Positions 1 through 6,624 of a stretch of 64,000 nucleotides of DNA are shown here, piece by piece. Below the pieces are notes generated by a model. The model was not told the DNA's origin. It searched no databases and was given only the letters and a program-made list of their open reading frames with translations. The translations under genes were made by a program, and so were the position numbers. The DNA comes from a virus. Every line of letters starts with the position of its first letter. The first letter of the stretch is position 1. Location: IMG/VR virus record IMGVR_UViG_3300014202_000591, one strand, 5' to 3'.

Positions 1-167
1 AGTGCGCTCAAAAGTTTTTCACCTGGTTCGCGTCGCCCTTTGATTACGTCGCCGAAGTATTGAGCAGAGATGCCCAGCACTTCGGCGTAGTTCTTTTGTG
101 AGCCTGCTTTTTCGGCTTCAGTTTTCAGAAGGGAAATGAGTTCATCGTGAGTGAGTTTCTTTTTCAT
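1..167 (-). CDS. Cro/CI-like helix-turn-helix regulator (truncated by window edge)
   Basis: Manual translation from the ATG at 167 gives MKKKLTHDELISLLKTEAEKAGSQKNYAEVLGISAQYFGDVIKGRREPGEKLLSAL, an XRE-type SQxxxAxxLGISxQY..DV..GRREP pattern. Not in the ORF track. Confidence 0.8.
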   Translation of the reverse strand, partial: MKKKLTHDELISLLKTEAEKAGSQKNYAEVLGISAQYFGDVIKGRREPGEKLLSA

Positions 168-172
168 AGGGG

Positions 173-204
173 TTGCATTATAAGCGGATTTGCGTATAAT
201 GCAA
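173..204. promoter_or_regulatory. Symmetric overlapping divergent sigma70-like promoters / operator
   Basis: TTGCATTATA-12 nt-TATAATGCAA is a perfect 10-bp inverted repeat. It reads TTGCAT-16 bp-TATAAT on both strands. Confidence 0.75.
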
Positions 205-337
205 GTAGCTGATACGCTTATCAGCTACGGCAGGGACACTGCCGGGTGCGCTAACGTGATTTGCTCAAGGAATGTGCGTCGCACCAAAACCCAGTACATA
301 TGGGCAATTTGCACGGACAACTTCTTTAGAAGTCAGT

Positions 338-487
338 ATTTTGCCCGTGCGTGCGTGGGATGTCCGGCTGTGCGACCCTCCACGCGCGCTCGACTTCATT
401 TTGCCCGTGCGTGCGTGGGATGTCCGACCTGCGCGACGCTGAAAGCAAGTTCGATACGATTTTGCCCGTGCGTGCGTGGGATGTCCG
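338..487 (+). CRISPR. CRISPR mini-array with 3 identical 29-bp type I-E-like repeats and 2 spacers
   Basis: Repeat ATTTTGCCCGTGCGTGCGTGGGATGTCCG at 338-366, 398-426 and 459-487. Unique spacers of 31 nt (367-397) and 32 nt (427-458). Length, central hairpin and CCG end resemble I-E repeats. No cas genes in the window. Confidence 0.85.
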
Positions 488-505
488 CAATCTTCAGATG
501 CGTGT

Positions 506-958
506 ATGAGAAAAGCCTACAAGTATAAAATCTATCCAACAACCAGTCAGACAGCAGCCCTGACCGCTCAGCTTTCCGAGTGCTGTCGGCTTTACAATGC
601 GGCACTTGCTGAGCGCATCGGCGCATACAAGATTGCCCGCAAGTCCATCACCTACTACGACCAGAAAAAGCAGGTAAAGGAGATTCGAGCGGCGGGAGAT
701 TGCAGTATTGCCAATCATCAGGTTGCCGCCGATGTGATCAAGCGCGTTGATCTGGCATTTCAGGCATTTTTCCGCCGCTGCAAGGCGGGCCACACGCCCG
801 GCTTCCCGCGCTTCCGGTCATACAAGCTTTACGACTCGCTGACGTTCACAGCCTGGAATAACGGCTGCCGATTTGTCGGACAGAAGCTTTTCATTGCTGG
901 CGCTGGCAACGTGAAAAGGCGCATTACAATGATGCCGAAAGATACTGTAGGCAGGTAG
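506..958 (+). CDS. tnpB: TnpB (IS200/IS605 OrfB)-like protein, N-terminal part only, no RuvC
   Basis: KAYKYKIYPT..Q...L......C..LYNAALAER and AFQAFFRRCKAG..PGFPRFRS match the OrfB_IS605 HTH/REC region. The ORF stops after 150 aa and no RuvC motifs follow in any frame before the next gene. Confidence 0.8.
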   Translation: MRKAYKYKIYPTTSQTAALTAQLSECCRLYNAALAERIGAYKIARKSITYYDQKKQVKEIRAAGDCSIANHQVAADVIKRVDLAFQAFFRRCKAGHTPGFPRFRSYKLYDSLTFTAWNNGCRFVGQKLFIAGAGNVKRRITMMPKDTVGR

Positions 959-1008
959 CGCCCCTGTGCGCCTTGCCTGGCGGGCGCGCGGCGGGGGAGG
1001 GGGACACT

Positions 1009-1281
1009 ATGAGCAAAGACATCATTCGCAGAATCGAAGCCCTTGAACGGCGACTGACGCCGCCGAAAGAGCCGGGCGCGACTGAAACCTTTGGCGCTCG
1101 CCTTCGCAGACTGCGCCAGAATGCCAACCTCTCACAAGGCGAGATGATTCCTGACGTTGGCATCTCGAAAGCTTACCTGAGCGACCTAGAGAACGATAAA
1201 CGGACGCCCGGCGCGGAAGTGCTGCATGGCTTGGCGCGGAAGCTGGGCGTCTCAATGGATTTTCTTTGGACAGGAGAATAG
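1009..1281 (+). CDS. XRE-family HTH transcriptional regulator
   Basis: FGARLRRLRQNANLSQGEM...GISKAYLSDLENDKRTPGAEVLHGLARKLGVSMDFL; GGAG/GGGG-rich RBS before the ATG at 1009. Confidence 0.9.
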   Translation: MSKDIIRRIEALERRLTPPKEPGATETFGARLRRLRQNANLSQGEMIPDVGISKAYLSDLENDKRTPGAEVLHGLARKLGVSMDFLWTGE

Positions 1282-1283
1282 GA

Positions 1284-1733
1284 ATGGAAATTGATAACAG
1301 CTTCAGCAATAACAGCAATCCGCCTCGCCGATTCTTTCTTGAGCGCATCAAAGACAAAACCGGCGTGAGTCGCACGGGCCGCGTTCTGGAAGGCGTCTTA
1401 TGGCAGAACGGCGAAGTGACCGTCCAATGGCGTCCGCCGATGTCAACAAGCGGCTTTTACCATTCAATGCAGGAGTTCCTGACGATTCACGTTGACTGCC
1501 ATCCGTCCTGCAATGTCGTGCGCTGGATTGACCGCGAGGCGTGGCACTGTTTCGACTGCGGCGCGGGTGGAATGGAAGGCAACTTCTGTTCGCGCTGCGG
1601 CTCGCCGTCCACTGGATTTCATCCAGCACTTGAGGGCTGGGAGCCGACAAAGCGATACGAGGCAGAGCGGGAATTGGATCAGTTGAACCGGCGGCGCAAG
1701 GGGTTGGTGGCGGCGCTTGATGGCGAGAAGTAG
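1284..1733 (+). CDS. Hypothetical phage protein with C-terminal CxxC-CxxC zinc ribbon
   Basis: F.L.R..D.TGVS.TG.V.EGV...GEVTVQW motif, seen in small phage proteins; CFDC and CSRC pairs. Confidence 0.6.
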   Translation: MEIDNSFSNNSNPPRRFFLERIKDKTGVSRTGRVLEGVLWQNGEVTVQWRPPMSTSGFYHSMQEFLTIHVDCHPSCNVVRWIDREAWHCFDCGAGGMEGNFCSRCGSPSTGFHPALEGWEPTKRYEAERELDQLNRRRKGLVAALDGEK

Positions 1734-1765
1734 CGCCCCGCGTGCGGCGGGCGGAAGGGGAATTT

Positions 1766-2113
1766 ATGACTAAGCATCACCTTAGAAAACTAGCACCGTA
1801 TAGAACCGCGCTGCGCGAACGATTCGAGGGATGGACGCGACAGCGCAAAGAACCGCTGTGGACGTGCGGCATCGTGACGGACGCTTTTTACGTGGTCACG
1901 CTTGGCGTCGGTAAATCAGCTTACGATGCGGCTGCGGTGCGGGAGAAAGTCAAAGACGCGCCAATGCCCGCAATGATCTTCGACGGGAAAATGGTTCACG
2001 TTGTGAAGGCATCTGGTGACGAATGGACGGCTGAAGCGGCAGAGGAAGACGCGAAGGAGATTGCGAGCGTGATCATCGCCGAAGAGATGGAACAAGCCAG
2101 ACGCAGGAGATGA
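1766..2113 (+). CDS. Hypothetical protein
   Basis: ORF with GGGG RBS, co-oriented in the early operon. Confidence 0.55.
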   Translation: MTKHHLRKLAPYRTALRERFEGWTRQRKEPLWTCGIVTDAFYVVTLGVGKSAYDAAAVREKVKDAPMPAMIFDGKMVHVVKASGDEWTAEAAEEDAKEIASVIIAEEMEQARRRR

Positions 2114-2156
2114 GCTAATAAATCGGAGTTTTTCTCGGCAGGAGGAAGAGAGGTTT

Positions 2157-2444
2157 ATGTTTATTCACAAACCAGACGAAGTATTGATCTATTACGACAG
2201 GCCGTTACTTTTCACGCTGAAATCGGAAGAAAGCGACAACGGCGAAGAGGTTTGGATTTGCTCGCCAATTACCGAAGAGAAGTTGAGCGACGTGAAAAGC
2301 GGCGCAGTTGACCTGCGTGAAGGCTTTCTTGGCCGCCCTTACAGCGTTGTGCGCGTGATGGCTAATGGCGATCCGGTGATTACAATTGCTGCTGAAGTGT
2401 CGGATGAATGGCTGCCAGACGTAGGGGCGAAGTTGCGTGTGTAA
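2157..2444 (+). CDS. Hypothetical protein (possible DUF6575-like)
   Basis: Strong AGAGG RBS; LIYYDRPLLFT motif recalled from DUF6575-like proteins, not verified. Confidence 0.5.
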   Translation: MFIHKPDEVLIYYDRPLLFTLKSEESDNGEEVWICSPITEEKLSDVKSGAVDLREGFLGRPYSVVRVMANGDPVITIAAEVSDEWLPDVGAKLRV

Positions 2445-3182
2445 ATCGGTCTTCCTGACGGCAAGCGCGCTCGGATGCCTGATTTTAGATGCGAGATAAC
2501 GTGCTATTATGCACGCGCATTAAGCGAGAACGGCAGGCGCTACCAACGCCCACCGTCTCTAACCAAATCGAAAGGGGTAAGCTTCCGATACCAGTCTTGA
2601 TTTTCTTTCGCAAGTCCAGCAGCTTGCGCCATCAATTCACCAACTCATCACAAGTAAGTCCGCGCGCATCACCGCTGCCGTCACGTCTCACGATGTCACT
2701 GCCGGTTATGGTCGCGGGTTCACGTTTCACTTAAAACCCGAACTGCTGATCGAGCAGTGCCTGACGTGCTTTGAAACGGCGACCAGTCGGCCTACCTTTG
2801 ATTGTCGCTGGCATCGCTTCGAGAAACGATTTATGCAAATCGTCGACGCGGAAGCGCCCACGCTGGAAAAGGCGTTGCGGAAGTTGGAGGCGGTGAGTGC
2901 ATTGGAAGAACGGAGGGCGGCGTGAAAGAAAAAGTATTCCCTCAATTGAGCGGATATAGGCCGCTACGGAGGCGCAGGACGGTCACACTTTGCCATTGGC
3001 TGGATGATCTGAATAGATGGAAGTGGCCCGCCGAAATAGCTCGCTTGACCGAGCGGCTAGAATCGGAGTCCCGCCCGCCAGGACGTGACTCGCTTCGCCC
3101 CTACGGGGCTGCGCTCGTTTCTACTATTTCCGCCGCCCCTTCGGGTTGTCTTGAAGTAGACTGGTAGCGGAGGAAGAAGACT

Positions 3183-3626
3183 ATGATTTTTACGCTTGAA
3201 CAAAAAATGGCCGCACTCGCAATGCGCTTTTACCAGAGGATGCCTTGGGAGCCGAAAGTTGGCGATTACTATTGCCTGACTCGTGAAGGCGTCGAACTGT
3301 TTATTATCAACCGTACCGATGGCGAGAACTTCTACATTCGCCGTGTGTACGCACCCGACCAGCCCGAAGGTGACGAAATGTCCGACCCTTGGCCGATTGA
3401 AAGCTTTCAGTCCGGCTTCGGGGAGAATCGCGTTTGGGTGCATCCGGTCATTCTAGAAAGAATGCGCTCCCGGTTTGAACATCAGGGGCCGTGCGTTAAA
3501 GGAACCTTTGGGCACAGCCTGATTCTCAAAGACGGAACGAAGGTTTGCATTAATAGAGGCGAGGGCGCAGAGAGTGCCCACGTTTGGCTGTCCAATCCCG
3601 CATGCGAAATTGTGACGGCTCAATGA
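3183..3626 (+). CDS. Hypothetical protein
   Basis: 147-aa ORF with GGAGGAAG RBS. Confidence 0.55.
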   Translation: MIFTLEQKMAALAMRFYQRMPWEPKVGDYYCLTREGVELFIINRTDGENFYIRRVYAPDQPEGDEMSDPWPIESFQSGFGENRVWVHPVILERMRSRFEHQGPCVKGTFGHSLILKDGTKVCINRGEGAESAHVWLSNPACEIVTAQ

Positions 3627-3907
3627 CGCCCTCCCCGTTACTCTTGCGCCATCCGGCGCGGCGAGTACGGGGCAGCGGGGCGGGCGGAAGGCAAAAGACA
3701 GCCCTCGCCCGTCTCCACTCCGGGCGCGTCGCTCAAAGCAGCGCCGCAGCCCTACGCTGCCGAGGGCGGGGGCTCGTTCGCGGCCCCTCTGGGGCACGCT
3801 CTCTCGCCGGTAAAACAGGATACTTTCCGTAATGAAGTGATGGACGTAATTCTGCTGGAATTAGGATTTAGGACTTGGCTTAAAACCAACCGCACATAAC
3901 TAGCATT

Positions 3908-4801
3908 ATGCTTGAAATCACCACTATTCTCGAAGCCTGCGAAACCGCGCCAACGCGCCGCGCCTATCGCCGTCAACTGGAACTGCTCGAAGCTTTCCTT
4001 GATGGCAACCTGCCTGATTATGGTTCAGTGATGGCGTATCGGGCGCACTTACAAGAGCGCGGACTTTCGCCTCAGAATATCAATCAGGCGCTCGCGGCCG
4101 TTCGCTTCTGGGCAGTCGGCGCGCTGGGACGCGAATGGATCAAGCCAGAGGTAAAGGCGGGAATCTTCGCCGTCAAGAACCTGAAGATCAAAGGCCGGAA
4201 GCTCGGCCATTGGCTCACGGTTGATGAAGCGCAAAGCCTCATCAACAAGCCGCCGCTGACTGCCATCGGCCAGCGTGACCGCGCAATGCTCGCACTACTG
4301 ATCGGTGCGGGACTGCGCCGCTCGGAAGTGGCTAGTTTGCAAGTTAAGCACTTCGAGCAACGCGATGGCGGCAATGGCGCAATGCGCTGGATGCTGATTG
4401 GTGTCACGGGAAAGCACGGGCGGACGCGAAACGTGCCGATTGCCGATTGGGTCAAGAAGATTGTGGACAAGTGGCTGAACGTGGCCAGGATTCGCAGCGG
4501 CAGCGTTTTTCGCCGCGTGCTGAAGCCGGAGCCACTGACGCTAGGCAAAGAAGCGCTGACGCCGCAGTCGGTCTATCTGGCCGTGAAGCGTTACGGCTTC
4601 GATATGGGGCGGAGCCAAATCGCGCCGCACGATTTACGGCGGACGTTTGCGCGCCTCGCGTTTGAAGGCGACGCCCCATTGAAACAGATTCAGTTTGCGT
4701 TAGGACACGCAAGCCAAACAACAACCGAACAGTACGTCAATGCGGAGCAGGATATGCAGCTTACGCCGGGGGATGTGCTGGGAATTAGTGTGGAGGTATA
4801 A
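3908..4801 (+). CDS. Tyrosine recombinase (XerC/D-like phage integrase family)
   Basis: Catalytic signature R (GLRRSEV), K (GKHGRTR), HxxR (PHDLRRTFA), H (LGHAS) and Y (TTEQY); N-terminal SAM-like SPQNINQALAAVR. Confidence 0.92.
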   Translation: MLEITTILEACETAPTRRAYRRQLELLEAFLDGNLPDYGSVMAYRAHLQERGLSPQNINQALAAVRFWAVGALGREWIKPEVKAGIFAVKNLKIKGRKLGHWLTVDEAQSLINKPPLTAIGQRDRAMLALLIGAGLRRSEVASLQVKHFEQRDGGNGAMRWMLIGVTGKHGRTRNVPIADWVKKIVDKWLNVARIRSGSVFRRVLKPEPLTLGKEALTPQSVYLAVKRYGFDMGRSQIAPHDLRRTFARLAFEGDAPLKQIQFALGHASQTTTEQYVNAEQDMQLTPGDVLGISVEV

Positions 4802-4804
4802 GAG

Positions 4805-5086
4805 ATGACATTCTGTAAATTCGCATTTGACCATCAGCCCAACGAGACATGTCCTCACTGTGAGATTGAAGTAGATCGTTACGGGAACACAGCGGAGGAT
4901 TTTCGCAACTGCTCATTTCCTGATTGCGGATGTGACGGGCAGCGGCTTTGCATGGCCCCAAGTGGAGCCAATCAAGACTCGTTAAGATGCAACGTCGAAG
5001 GAATGTATCGCCGAACGGACAAGGCGGCAGTGGCGGCGCGGCTGCGGTTGATGGGAATTGTCGCTAAGACTCAATATCGTAAATGA
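4805..5086 (+). CDS. Cys-rich hypothetical protein
   Basis: ORF follows the recombinase after 3 bp; CPHC and CSFPDCGC. Confidence 0.55.
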   Translation: MTFCKFAFDHQPNETCPHCEIEVDRYGNTAEDFRNCSFPDCGCDGQRLCMAPSGANQDSLRCNVEGMYRRTDKAAVAARLRLMGIVAKTQYRK

Positions 5087-5724
5087 ACGCAAGCATCAAT
5101 TATGGTGCAGTTTTTTTTTCAAAGGAGAGCGGATATGCCTACAAGAATGGACAGCGAATTGAAGAGCGGAGCGATTACACAATCACACCCGATGGCGGCT
5201 ATGGCACACCCGGCACGTGGCCGGGCATCGTGCAGGCTCTGGAAGGTCAAAAGCCAGAGCAATCGCCTCGAAATCCGTATCATCACGTCGTGCTCGGTGA
5301 CGGGCCAATCTTCGTGGGGTTGCATCAGCAAAGCTCAACTCTCGTCTATCGCGGGGTCGAAAAGCTTGACTTCCTGAGCCTCGTGCAAGATGCACCACAG
5401 GAAGCAATCAAGGAATGGACGCATGAAGGCAAAACTGAAAAGTATTTAGACGATGATTATTTTCGAGACAATGACTTGCCCATTGTTTTGTCTATTGATG
5501 GCATCCGAATTGAGGTTCGGTATACCTTCAGTGACAATTATTATCAATTTGTCAGAATGGAGCAGCCGGACGGCGCAGTATGGTGCGGGTGGTCTGGCTA
5601 TGGTGTCGGCGCAGGACTTGAAGGCTGCGGCTACGGCGGAGATTCGAGCGACTGCGACAACCAAATGCTCGCTTTCTGGCCTGACGCCATCTTGCGGGCA
5701 GAGCGGGTTCCCGCAACCGTTTAG
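5083..5724 (+). CDS. Hypothetical protein
   Basis: ATGA/TAA-type overlap with the upstream gene; 213 aa. Confidence 0.6.
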   Translation: MNASINYGAVFFSKESGYAYKNGQRIEERSDYTITPDGGYGTPGTWPGIVQALEGQKPEQSPRNPYHHVVLGDGPIFVGLHQQSSTLVYRGVEKLDFLSLVQDAPQEAIKEWTHEGKTEKYLDDDYFRDNDLPIVLSIDGIRIEVRYTFSDNYYQFVRMEQPDGAVWCGWSGYGVGAGLEGCGYGGDSSDCDNQMLAFWPDAILRAERVPATV

Positions 5725-5778
5725 CCACGCTCCCCCACGGGCGGCACGGCGGAAGCAGCAAATAAGGAGAAATGCACC

Positions 5779-6624
5779 ATGGCAACCTATACAGCAGATG
5801 ACCTGTTTCGATTCTACGACGACGATTTTGATGACGACGAAATCAACGGCGGCGACGAAGACGACGAACACGAATTCGGCTGCTGCTTCCCTGGCCGCTG
5901 CTTAATGCCAAGCCCTGACCACAGCATGGCACGAAGAGCAAATGAAAGGAGAAATGCACCAATGACCACCACCGCATCACCCGCTCCCCTGCCGCCCGAA
6001 CTGGTGGCGAAGGCGGCGGGGGCAACGAGAGCCTACCGCCGAAGCCTGGAATTTGCGGACGATTGGGACGATGAGACTGCCGCCGAAGCCGCCCTTCTCG
6101 CCGCCGACGTGCCGGGACTGATGGCGGAGCGCGACAGTGCGGTTCGCGTTGCTGAAATTCTGGCCGTGAATCTGAAGAAAACGGAAGCCGAGTGCGGGCG
6201 GCTGCTGGCGGAGAACGAGCATTTTCGCGTGTCAGCAAGTCAGCTAAAATGGCTTGGCGAGCTACCGGCAGACGAGCGCGCGCGGTTGGTCAAAATCTAT
6301 TTTGGCGACTTTACTAAAATAGAGCAGGAGCGCGACGAAGCTCAACGCGCCGCCGCCCTGCACCGCGACATGGACAATTTCAACCACGCGCTGCTGGAGA
6401 AGGCGCGGGCGGAGAACGCCGAAGCGCGGACGGCGTTGGCATTCCTGATGCGCGACGTTGACGCCGTGACGGGCGTTTCCAATAAAGACCGGTACGACTT
6501 TGCAGTGGACGTGGCCCGCGAGCGTGGCCACGAAGAGCCGACGGCGGAAGATGAGTTAGATGGATTTTTGCGTTTGATTGTGGAAGCCCGGCGCGTGATG
6601 GGCAAGGAGGTGCAGAATGGATGA
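5779..6624 (+). CDS. Hypothetical coiled-coil protein, probably with an internal start at 5962
   Basis: Two identical AAGGAGAAATGCACCA RBS blocks precede the ATGs at 5779 and 5962, in the same frame. Confidence 0.6.
   Translation: MATYTADDLFRFYDDDFDDDEINGGDEDDEHEFGCCFPGRCLMPSPDHSMARRANERRNAPMTTTASPAPLPPELVAKAAGATRAYRRSLEFADDWDDETAAEAALLAADVPGLMAERDSAVRVAEILAVNLKKTEAECGRLLAENEHFRVSASQLKWLGELPADERARLVKIYFGDFTKIEQERDEAQRAAALHRDMDNFNHALLEKARAENAEARTALAFLMRDVDAVTGVSNKDRYDFAVDVARERGHEEPTAEDELDGFLRLIVEARRVMGKEVQNG

Follow-up and report, generated by a model that had tools for sequence, protein, structure and literature searches.

The 150-codon open reading frame (ORF) at positions 506-958 of the window, that is, of the whole 64,000-nt stretch of viral DNA analysed here, encodes the N-terminal third of an IS200/IS605 TnpB. 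It is probably an inert relic of an IS605-type tnpB gene that is functionally unrelated to the CRISPR-like mini-array lying just upstream of it. The window corresponds to bases 2942-66941 of an IMG/VR provirus record of 68,520 nt, for which CheckV gives ~66% completeness. The stub and the features around it are as follows.

3-167, minus strand: gene for a 69-aa helix-turn-helix (HTH) protein, continuing past the window start and divergent from the array.
173-200, plus strand: promoter-like TTGCAT-16 nt-TATAAT, read from the sequence; it sits within a palindrome (173-204, inverted repeat I5) between the HTH gene and the array.
338-487, plus strand: CRISPR-like mini-array of three identical 29-nt repeats and two spacers.
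488-505, plus strand: junction of 18 nt from the last repeat to the ATG, without a Shine-Dalgarno sequence in the window record.
506-958, plus strand: truncated tnpB ORF.
955-986, plus strand: GC-rich intergenic motif, copy 1, GTAGCGCCCC ... GGCGGGCG; it provides the TAG stop codon of the stub, and the tnpB-derived sequence ends here.
1009-1281, plus strand: gene for a Cro/CI-type HTH protein of 90 aa, 50 nt past the stub, with a strong Shine-Dalgarno sequence.
1284-1733, plus strand: gene for an Acb5-family homologue of 149 aa.
1730-1753, plus strand: GC-rich intergenic motif, copy 2, at the stop codon of the Acb5-like gene.

A 150-aa TnpB N-terminal region starting 18 nt after the last repeat was already recognized in the preliminary description of this DNA, and profile, sequence and structure comparisons agree with the assignment. 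The ORF is open, begins exactly at the native TnpB start codon (ATG 506) and matches Pfam HTH_OrfB_IS605 (E 1.6e-10), PHROG 506 ('transposase') and, at 60 bits against a cut-off of 100 bits, NCBIfam guided_TnpB, a sub-threshold score that is expected for a fragment. It aligns with residues 4-142 of ISDra2 TnpB (E 8e-12). A search of 1.84 billion representative proteins returned 4,318 matches to the stub, all of which cover query residues 1 to ~140 and fall on the N-terminus of the matched protein. Homology to full-length TnpBs ends at about residue 140 (...AGAGNVK), where the preliminary description had also seen it stop, and a faint likeness extends to about residue 148. All invariant and near-invariant residues of the family alignment (71 sequences) are kept by the stub, and its last 12 residues diverge from the conserved K-L-H-R-P motif of the family.

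In ISDra2 TnpB, the REC domain comprises residues 13-116 and the WED domain, a seven-stranded barrel, residues 1-12 and 117-176; RuvC starts from residue 185, and the omega-RNA scaffold is bound by a surface made of WED and RuvC (cryo-EM, PMC10097598). ORF 506-958 retains REC in full and the first four WED strands, one before REC and three after it; missing are the final three WED strands, RuvC, the TNB zinc ribbon and the C-terminal domain. Consistently, the AlphaFold2 model of the stub (pLDDT 94) is built of a short strand followed by three long helices and then three further strands, and the structural comparison proposed in the preliminary description places it on the REC lobe of ISDra2 TnpB (8EX9/8H1J, Foldseek) with a TM score of 0.75-0.79 at 23-26% identity. 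The model has four WED strands compared with seven in ISDra2 TnpB, and the barrel is incomplete.

The remaining parts of the element are absent. Six-frame searches of the 68.5-kb record gave no match to OrfB_IS605/RuvC (PF01385), to the Y1 TnpA (PF01797) or, at E <= 0.01, to the TNB zinc ribbon (PF07282), and tblastn searches with full-length P0041, P0044 and P0050 found only residues 1 to ~150 and nothing downstream of the stub. No IS ends are present in the 68.5-kb provirus record. The preliminary description, which had seen neither a RuvC half nor a transposase nor an IS end, is thus confirmed over the whole record. On the 5' side, only 18 nt lie between the last repeat and ATG 506, which leaves no space for an IS left end or for TnpA. 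On the 3' side, the end of tnpB, with the omega RNA and the IS right end, is absent, and the 50 nt from the stop codon to the next gene are phage intergenic motif. An Rfam search of window positions 1-6000 gave no match to a CRISPR-DR or omega-RNA family and no structured RNA. Because TnpA, the IS ends, RuvC, TNB and the omega RNA are all gone, the stub should be unable to move or to act as an RNA-guided nuclease or binder.

The nearest full-length relatives of the stub are ordinary IS605 TnpBs, namely P0041 (387 aa, 54% identity) and P0044 (381 aa, 50% identity), and neither lies beside an array. The P0044 gene follows a Y1 TnpA gene with no intervening base, a textbook IS605 layout. A tree built from the first 140 residues puts the stub into a 16-member clade together with P0041 and P0044; the terminal branch of the stub (0.66) is the longest in the clade, most others being 0.12-0.53. 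The stub resembles IS200/IS605 TnpBs (ISDra2, PDB 8BF8/8EXA/8H1J; P0041, P0044) over residues 1 to ~140, but it is a fragment and not a working member of this family.

A census of viral contigs, with an alignment of subclade members as the query, yielded 45 loci. At 40 of them, a single match spans nearly all of P0044 without a break, and one more is cut by the contig end. Stubs in this census end at residue 124 (L105/L106), 184 (L064, the same contig as L008) and 206 (L104). In metagenome contigs, the L060 stub stops at residue 159, with TnpA kept upstream and an Acb2/Tad1-hairpin gene nearby, and those of L061-63 stop at residue 156 in the vicinity of a major capsid gene. P0002, which at 59% identity is the stub most similar to the one in the window, breaks off at about residue 122 and adjoins a 2H-phosphoesterase gene. 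RuvC-less N-terminal TnpB ORFs of 150-206 codons, with the native start and no downstream remnant, are thus present in several phage contigs (L060:2527-3546, L061:3001-3585, L106:3001-3453 and L104). Such remnants, including those in cultured phages, resemble the window stub in belonging to the same or a related TnpB subclade, in their phage context and in their open ORF. However, each has a different cut residue and background, none adjoins a repeat array, and L060, as mentioned, retains its TnpA. They share the tnpB piece only, their flanks and C-terminal tails being unrelated, and the truncation seen in the window is unique to this phage, other stubs ending elsewhere. Unique truncation and array-free, full-length IS605 TnpBs as nearest homologues are two of the three outcomes that the preliminary description had listed as speaking against it. 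The scattered end points fit independent decay. An apparent cluster of cut points at residues 150-160 (window, L060, L061 and P0040) dissolved when the IMG/VR census added cuts at 124, 184 and 206.

Other kinds of damage lead to comparable fragments. Frameshifted or split tnpB pseudogenes (L058 and L059) give similar short N-terminal ORFs, and such genes are common. Among cultured phages, 251 of the 331 records with a TnpB match have a full-length copy, and C-terminal-only pieces are also present. The overall picture is of a mobile element that is widespread in phages and breaks down at random positions, and as a rough base rate about one in ten subclade copies is a stub; the search was seeded with an N-terminal query, so that the finding of N-terminal stubs is partly a matter of ascertainment.

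The arrangement of array plus stub is confined to contigs that are 99.7-99.9% identical to the window (L006 and L007) and to identical short contig fragments from runs on wastewater, activated sludge and drinking water. Runs X2-X5, of which X2 is probably DNA, gave only short contigs that match stretches of the region at 100% identity, and among them there was no variant without the stub or without the array. The preliminary description had proposed that homologues be searched for the same truncation with an upstream array; no such recurrence exists beyond contigs of at least 99.7% identity. No CRISPR-like array lies beside the gene in the 29 and 45 related viral loci compared, nor in L056, L060 and L061. 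A comparison of the repeat with the flanks and ends of related IS elements, including the left-end regions of L056 and L060, gave at best 19 of 29 ungapped matches, which is chance level. No support was found for a link between stub and array. In L007, positions 2993-4469 run, past the Acb5-like gene, into the reverse complement of record positions 1-1477, a junction that may reflect an inversion, the joint of a circular permutation or faulty assembly.

Known systems in which a TnpB-like protein works with an array or a guide RNA differ from the stub. TranC and miniature type V effectors (LaTranC, PDB 9JFO) have a TnpB-like protein linked to an array, and some of them are found in phages. Two more distantly related loci in viral contigs are of this kind: L023:652-2367 (IMG/VR 3300007146_000001) encodes a 388-aa TnpB-like protein that matches ISDra2 TnpB end to end (E 1e-43), and L025:4001-6024 (IMG/VR 3300027706_000010) encodes a 482-aa TnpB-like protein. 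Each has an array directly 3' of the gene, with 7 and 8 repeats, respectively, of ~37-40 nt and spacers of roughly 30-36 nt, and both have the appearance of very small type V or TranC-like units carried by phages. In contrast to the stub, these proteins are full-length with RuvC, their ~37-40-nt repeats lie downstream of the gene, and they belong to other clades, L023 and L025 falling outside the clade of the stub in the tree. Compared with a type V effector (Cas12 or TranC), the stub lacks RuvC, a recurring linkage to an array and any likeness between the repeat and IS ends. TldR and Cas12m share with the stub the descent from TnpB or Cas12 and the lost nuclease, and TldRs are also phage-borne according to bioRxiv 10.1101/2023.11.30.569447. 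However, they keep the whole RuvC fold, on which the guide-RNA scaffold is held, and an adjacent guide RNA, whereas the stub has neither the NUC lobe nor a guide RNA.

Properties of the mini-array itself point away from a TnpB partner. Its repeats at 338-366, 398-426 and 459-487 enclose spacers of 31 and 32 nt (367-397 and 427-458), and the repeat geometry looks type I-E-like and not type V-like. The repeat can fold into a 6-bp stem with two G-U pairs, a 4-nt loop and a 7-nt tail; by folding energy, neither the repeat nor the intergenic motifs differ from shuffled controls. No repeat copy occurs elsewhere in the 68,520-nt record at up to 3 mismatches, nor elsewhere in the window with at least 19 of 29 matches. 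No cas genes, CasE and Cas7e genes included, are found in the record, an absence that is provisional at 66% CheckV completeness. For protospacers, there is no exact match in IMG/VR and nothing significant by blastn against GenBank phages; within the record and the loci compared, none was found even with 9 mismatches allowed. The two spacers are alike (18 ungapped matches, p ~3.5e-4 by shuffling), and both read L-x-D-x4-[LF]-D in one frame. They may derive from the same gene site in two related targets. Virus-borne mini-arrays, single-repeat RNA anti-CRISPRs and phage crRNA-like RNAs resemble the 338-487 array in its two spacers, lack of cas genes, early-operon position and temperate phage carrier (PMC11656645; bioRxiv 10.1101/2024.10.29.618823), but this likeness concerns the neighbour of the stub only and not the stub.

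The two joints of the stub are tidy. The GC-rich intergenic motif (GTAGCGCCCC...GGCGGGCG) has exactly two copies in 64 kb, compared with none expected from shuffles, and because the stop codon of the stub lies inside this recurring phage motif, it marks a recombination joint. At the upstream joint, the tnpB-derived sequence starts within the 18 nt before the native start codon. The intergenic motifs look like cassette boundaries for the exchange of early accessory genes, the 3' joint of the stub being one of them, and a motif at cassette ends may act as a module-exchange or RNA-end signal. In a related phage, L057 (69% identity), a different but analogous GC-rich motif lies at 1440-1475 and 1958-1990, on both sides of the Acb5 homologue. 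No stub-less synteny partner was found: L057 is the sole relative reached through the Acb5-like gene and has a different upstream region.

The genes downstream belong to the early region of the phage. The 90-aa product of 1009-1281 matches Pfam HTH_31 and HTH_3 and is RstR-like by NCBIfam. The product of 1284-1733 is assigned to the Acb5 family by a precomputed Pfam match (PF26761) on the identical product in L006 and L007, whereas a separate Pfam search of the 1284-1733 product gave no Acb5 match. This product has a C-terminal CxxC...CxxC zinc-ribbon-like part and a weak Zn_ribbon_DnaG match. Acb5-family proteins are anti-CBASS enzymes that cleave CBASS signals (cGAMP) (bioRxiv 10.1101/2025.07.12.664507). 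The preliminary description had put array and stub on the same predicted transcript. Because no terminator-like site lies between the array and the stub or between the following operon elements, and because a promoter-like site is present at 173-200, a single early transcript running from the array through the stub and the HTH gene to the Acb5-like gene is plausible, and the earlier statement holds to that extent. The site at 173-200 is absent from a consensus promoter scan, its -35 hexamer matching at 3 of 6 positions, and its promoter function is putative.

Signs of expression of the stub as a protein point both ways. ATG 506 has no Shine-Dalgarno sequence in front of it, unlike the next four genes with their GGAGG-like sites; a genome-wide survey is too crude for this purpose (an SD-like 4-mer in 15 of 53 first-ATG ORFs), and the argument concerns the four neighbouring genes only. 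In L007, a T499G change (L007 position 1629, window position 499) creates GAGG 6 nt (500-505) before the stub ATG and also removes a 3-codon upstream mini-ORF (ATG CGT GTA TGA). The near-identical contigs (99.7-99.9%) have no substitutions inside the stub ORF, and dN/dS is not computable because these contigs alone share the stub and show no variation in the ORF. dS is saturated between the stub and the other stubs and full-length genes. It is also saturated between L008 and L060 (dN 0.13), whose divergence may predate the truncations, so that this pair is silent on selection for the short form.

These observations suggest how the arrangement would have arisen. An IS605 tnpB would have been reduced to codons 1 to ~150 with loss of the rest of the element, and the relic would have been left in an accessory slot at the head of the rightward early operon of the phage. 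The promoter-like site at 173-200 probably drives passive transcription of the stub, in an operon whose order would be mini-array, stub, Cro-like HTH gene and Acb5-like anti-CBASS gene. The mini-array would be an independent element, its most plausible reader being a type I-E-like Cas complex of the host, and its adjacency to the stub would be a one-off rearrangement product in a hot spot of accessory DNA. Several orders of arrival are possible: the IS may have entered a longer array, the array may have come later, or both may have come from a host locus. The proposal in the preliminary description that an IS landed in the array and was later deleted survives in so far as the stub fits an IS remnant. 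Landing in the array is another matter, since neither an IS end nor TnpA is present and no array remnant lies on the far side of the stub.

Some observations do not sit easily with an inert relic. A frame of 150 open codons with the native start and all conserved residues is unlike the product of long neutral decay. Both joints are tidy, one falling 18 nt upstream of the ATG and the other at a motif of cassette ends. The stub shares its operon with a counter-defence gene, and the L060 and P0002 stubs also lie near counter-defence-like genes. Finally, the point change in L007 makes a GAGG ribosome-binding motif. The alternatives below have to be weighed with these observations in mind.

Joint capture from the host, in which the end of an array and an IS605 remnant were already adjacent on the host chromosome, is unlikely. 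CRISPR loci often have IS elements inside them or next to them. The classification of the record as a provirus and the G+C content of the stub (52-56%), which matches that of its surroundings, are both compatible with such an origin. Viral mini-arrays, moreover, normally carry host repeats (review PMC11656645). However, no host array with this repeat was found. An exact 24-mer plus a degenerate two-copy pattern gave six unrelated tandem or REP-like matches in 185,579 species genomes, a 20-mer gave single chance matches inside coding sequence only in JGI metagenome contigs, and a search at up to 3 mismatches gave nothing in 401 Acidobacteriota genomes. Furthermore, array ends usually carry a degenerate last repeat, whereas all three repeats are identical here.

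A domesticated derivative of TnpB consisting of the REC lobe only appears distinctly improbable. Such an early protein would bind DNA/TAM or RNA, interfere with host TnpB/Cas12-type proteins as a decoy or dominant-negative inhibitor, or serve as a small regulator. The open ORF with the native start and the conserved residues of the family, the confident REC-lobe model and the position in an early operon with an Acb5-like gene all agree with such a protein, as do the RuvC-less N-terminal TnpB ORFs in other phage contigs, two of them near counter-defence-like genes, and small PHROGs families of unknown function that weakly match the region of ORF 506-958. Against it, stub cut points range from 122 to 206 with unrelated tails, indicating no conserved short form, and ~90% of the subclade copies in phages are full length. 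The incomplete WED barrel, the lack of a Shine-Dalgarno sequence, the long terminal branch of the stub and the restriction of the arrangement to one phage lineage also argue against a function of the short protein, and the short forms in other phages lose weight through the ascertainment by an N-terminal query and through the C-terminal-only pieces in cultured phages. A minimal REC/WED binder or decoy had been one of the options in the preliminary description, and it gained no positive support: the barrel is incomplete, the cut point varies and the form occurs only in near-identical contigs. The wider proposal that phages repeatedly keep the REC/WED lobe of TnpB as a small early protein of counter-defence clusters, here co-expressed with a mini-array and an anti-CBASS enzyme and either blocking host TnpB/Cas12-type proteins, as a decoy or in a dominant-negative manner, or binding a DNA motif, is more doubtful still.

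A decayed CRISPR-associated TnpB, once part of a proto-type-V unit that used the crRNAs of the array and has since lost its nuclease half, was also among the earlier options; although the array adjoins the stub in the same orientation and viral contigs do include genes of TnpB size with an array next to them (L023 and L025), it is very hard to credit, since the repeats here are I-E-like, 29 nt long and upstream rather than ~37-40 nt long and downstream, the best match of the repeat to IS flanks (19 of 29) is chance, the stub clusters with TnpA-linked ordinary IS605 TnpBs and not with L023 and L025, and none of the ~75 wider-family loci pairs the gene with an array.

The inert relic thus stays the preferred reading of ORF 506-958. 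If the stub worked as a REC-lobe protein tied to the array, it would represent a new step from TnpB to Cas12 and a new phage counter-defence factor, and repeated retention of the lobe by phages, if true, would be an exaptation of TnpB free of the nuclease lobe, a class without prior description. The evidence points instead to routine decay of a mobile element in an accessory slot of a temperate phage. A piece of TnpB beside a repeat array is, by adjacency alone, no evidence of CRISPR association; of greater interest in this operon are the mini-array itself and the Acb5-like gene.
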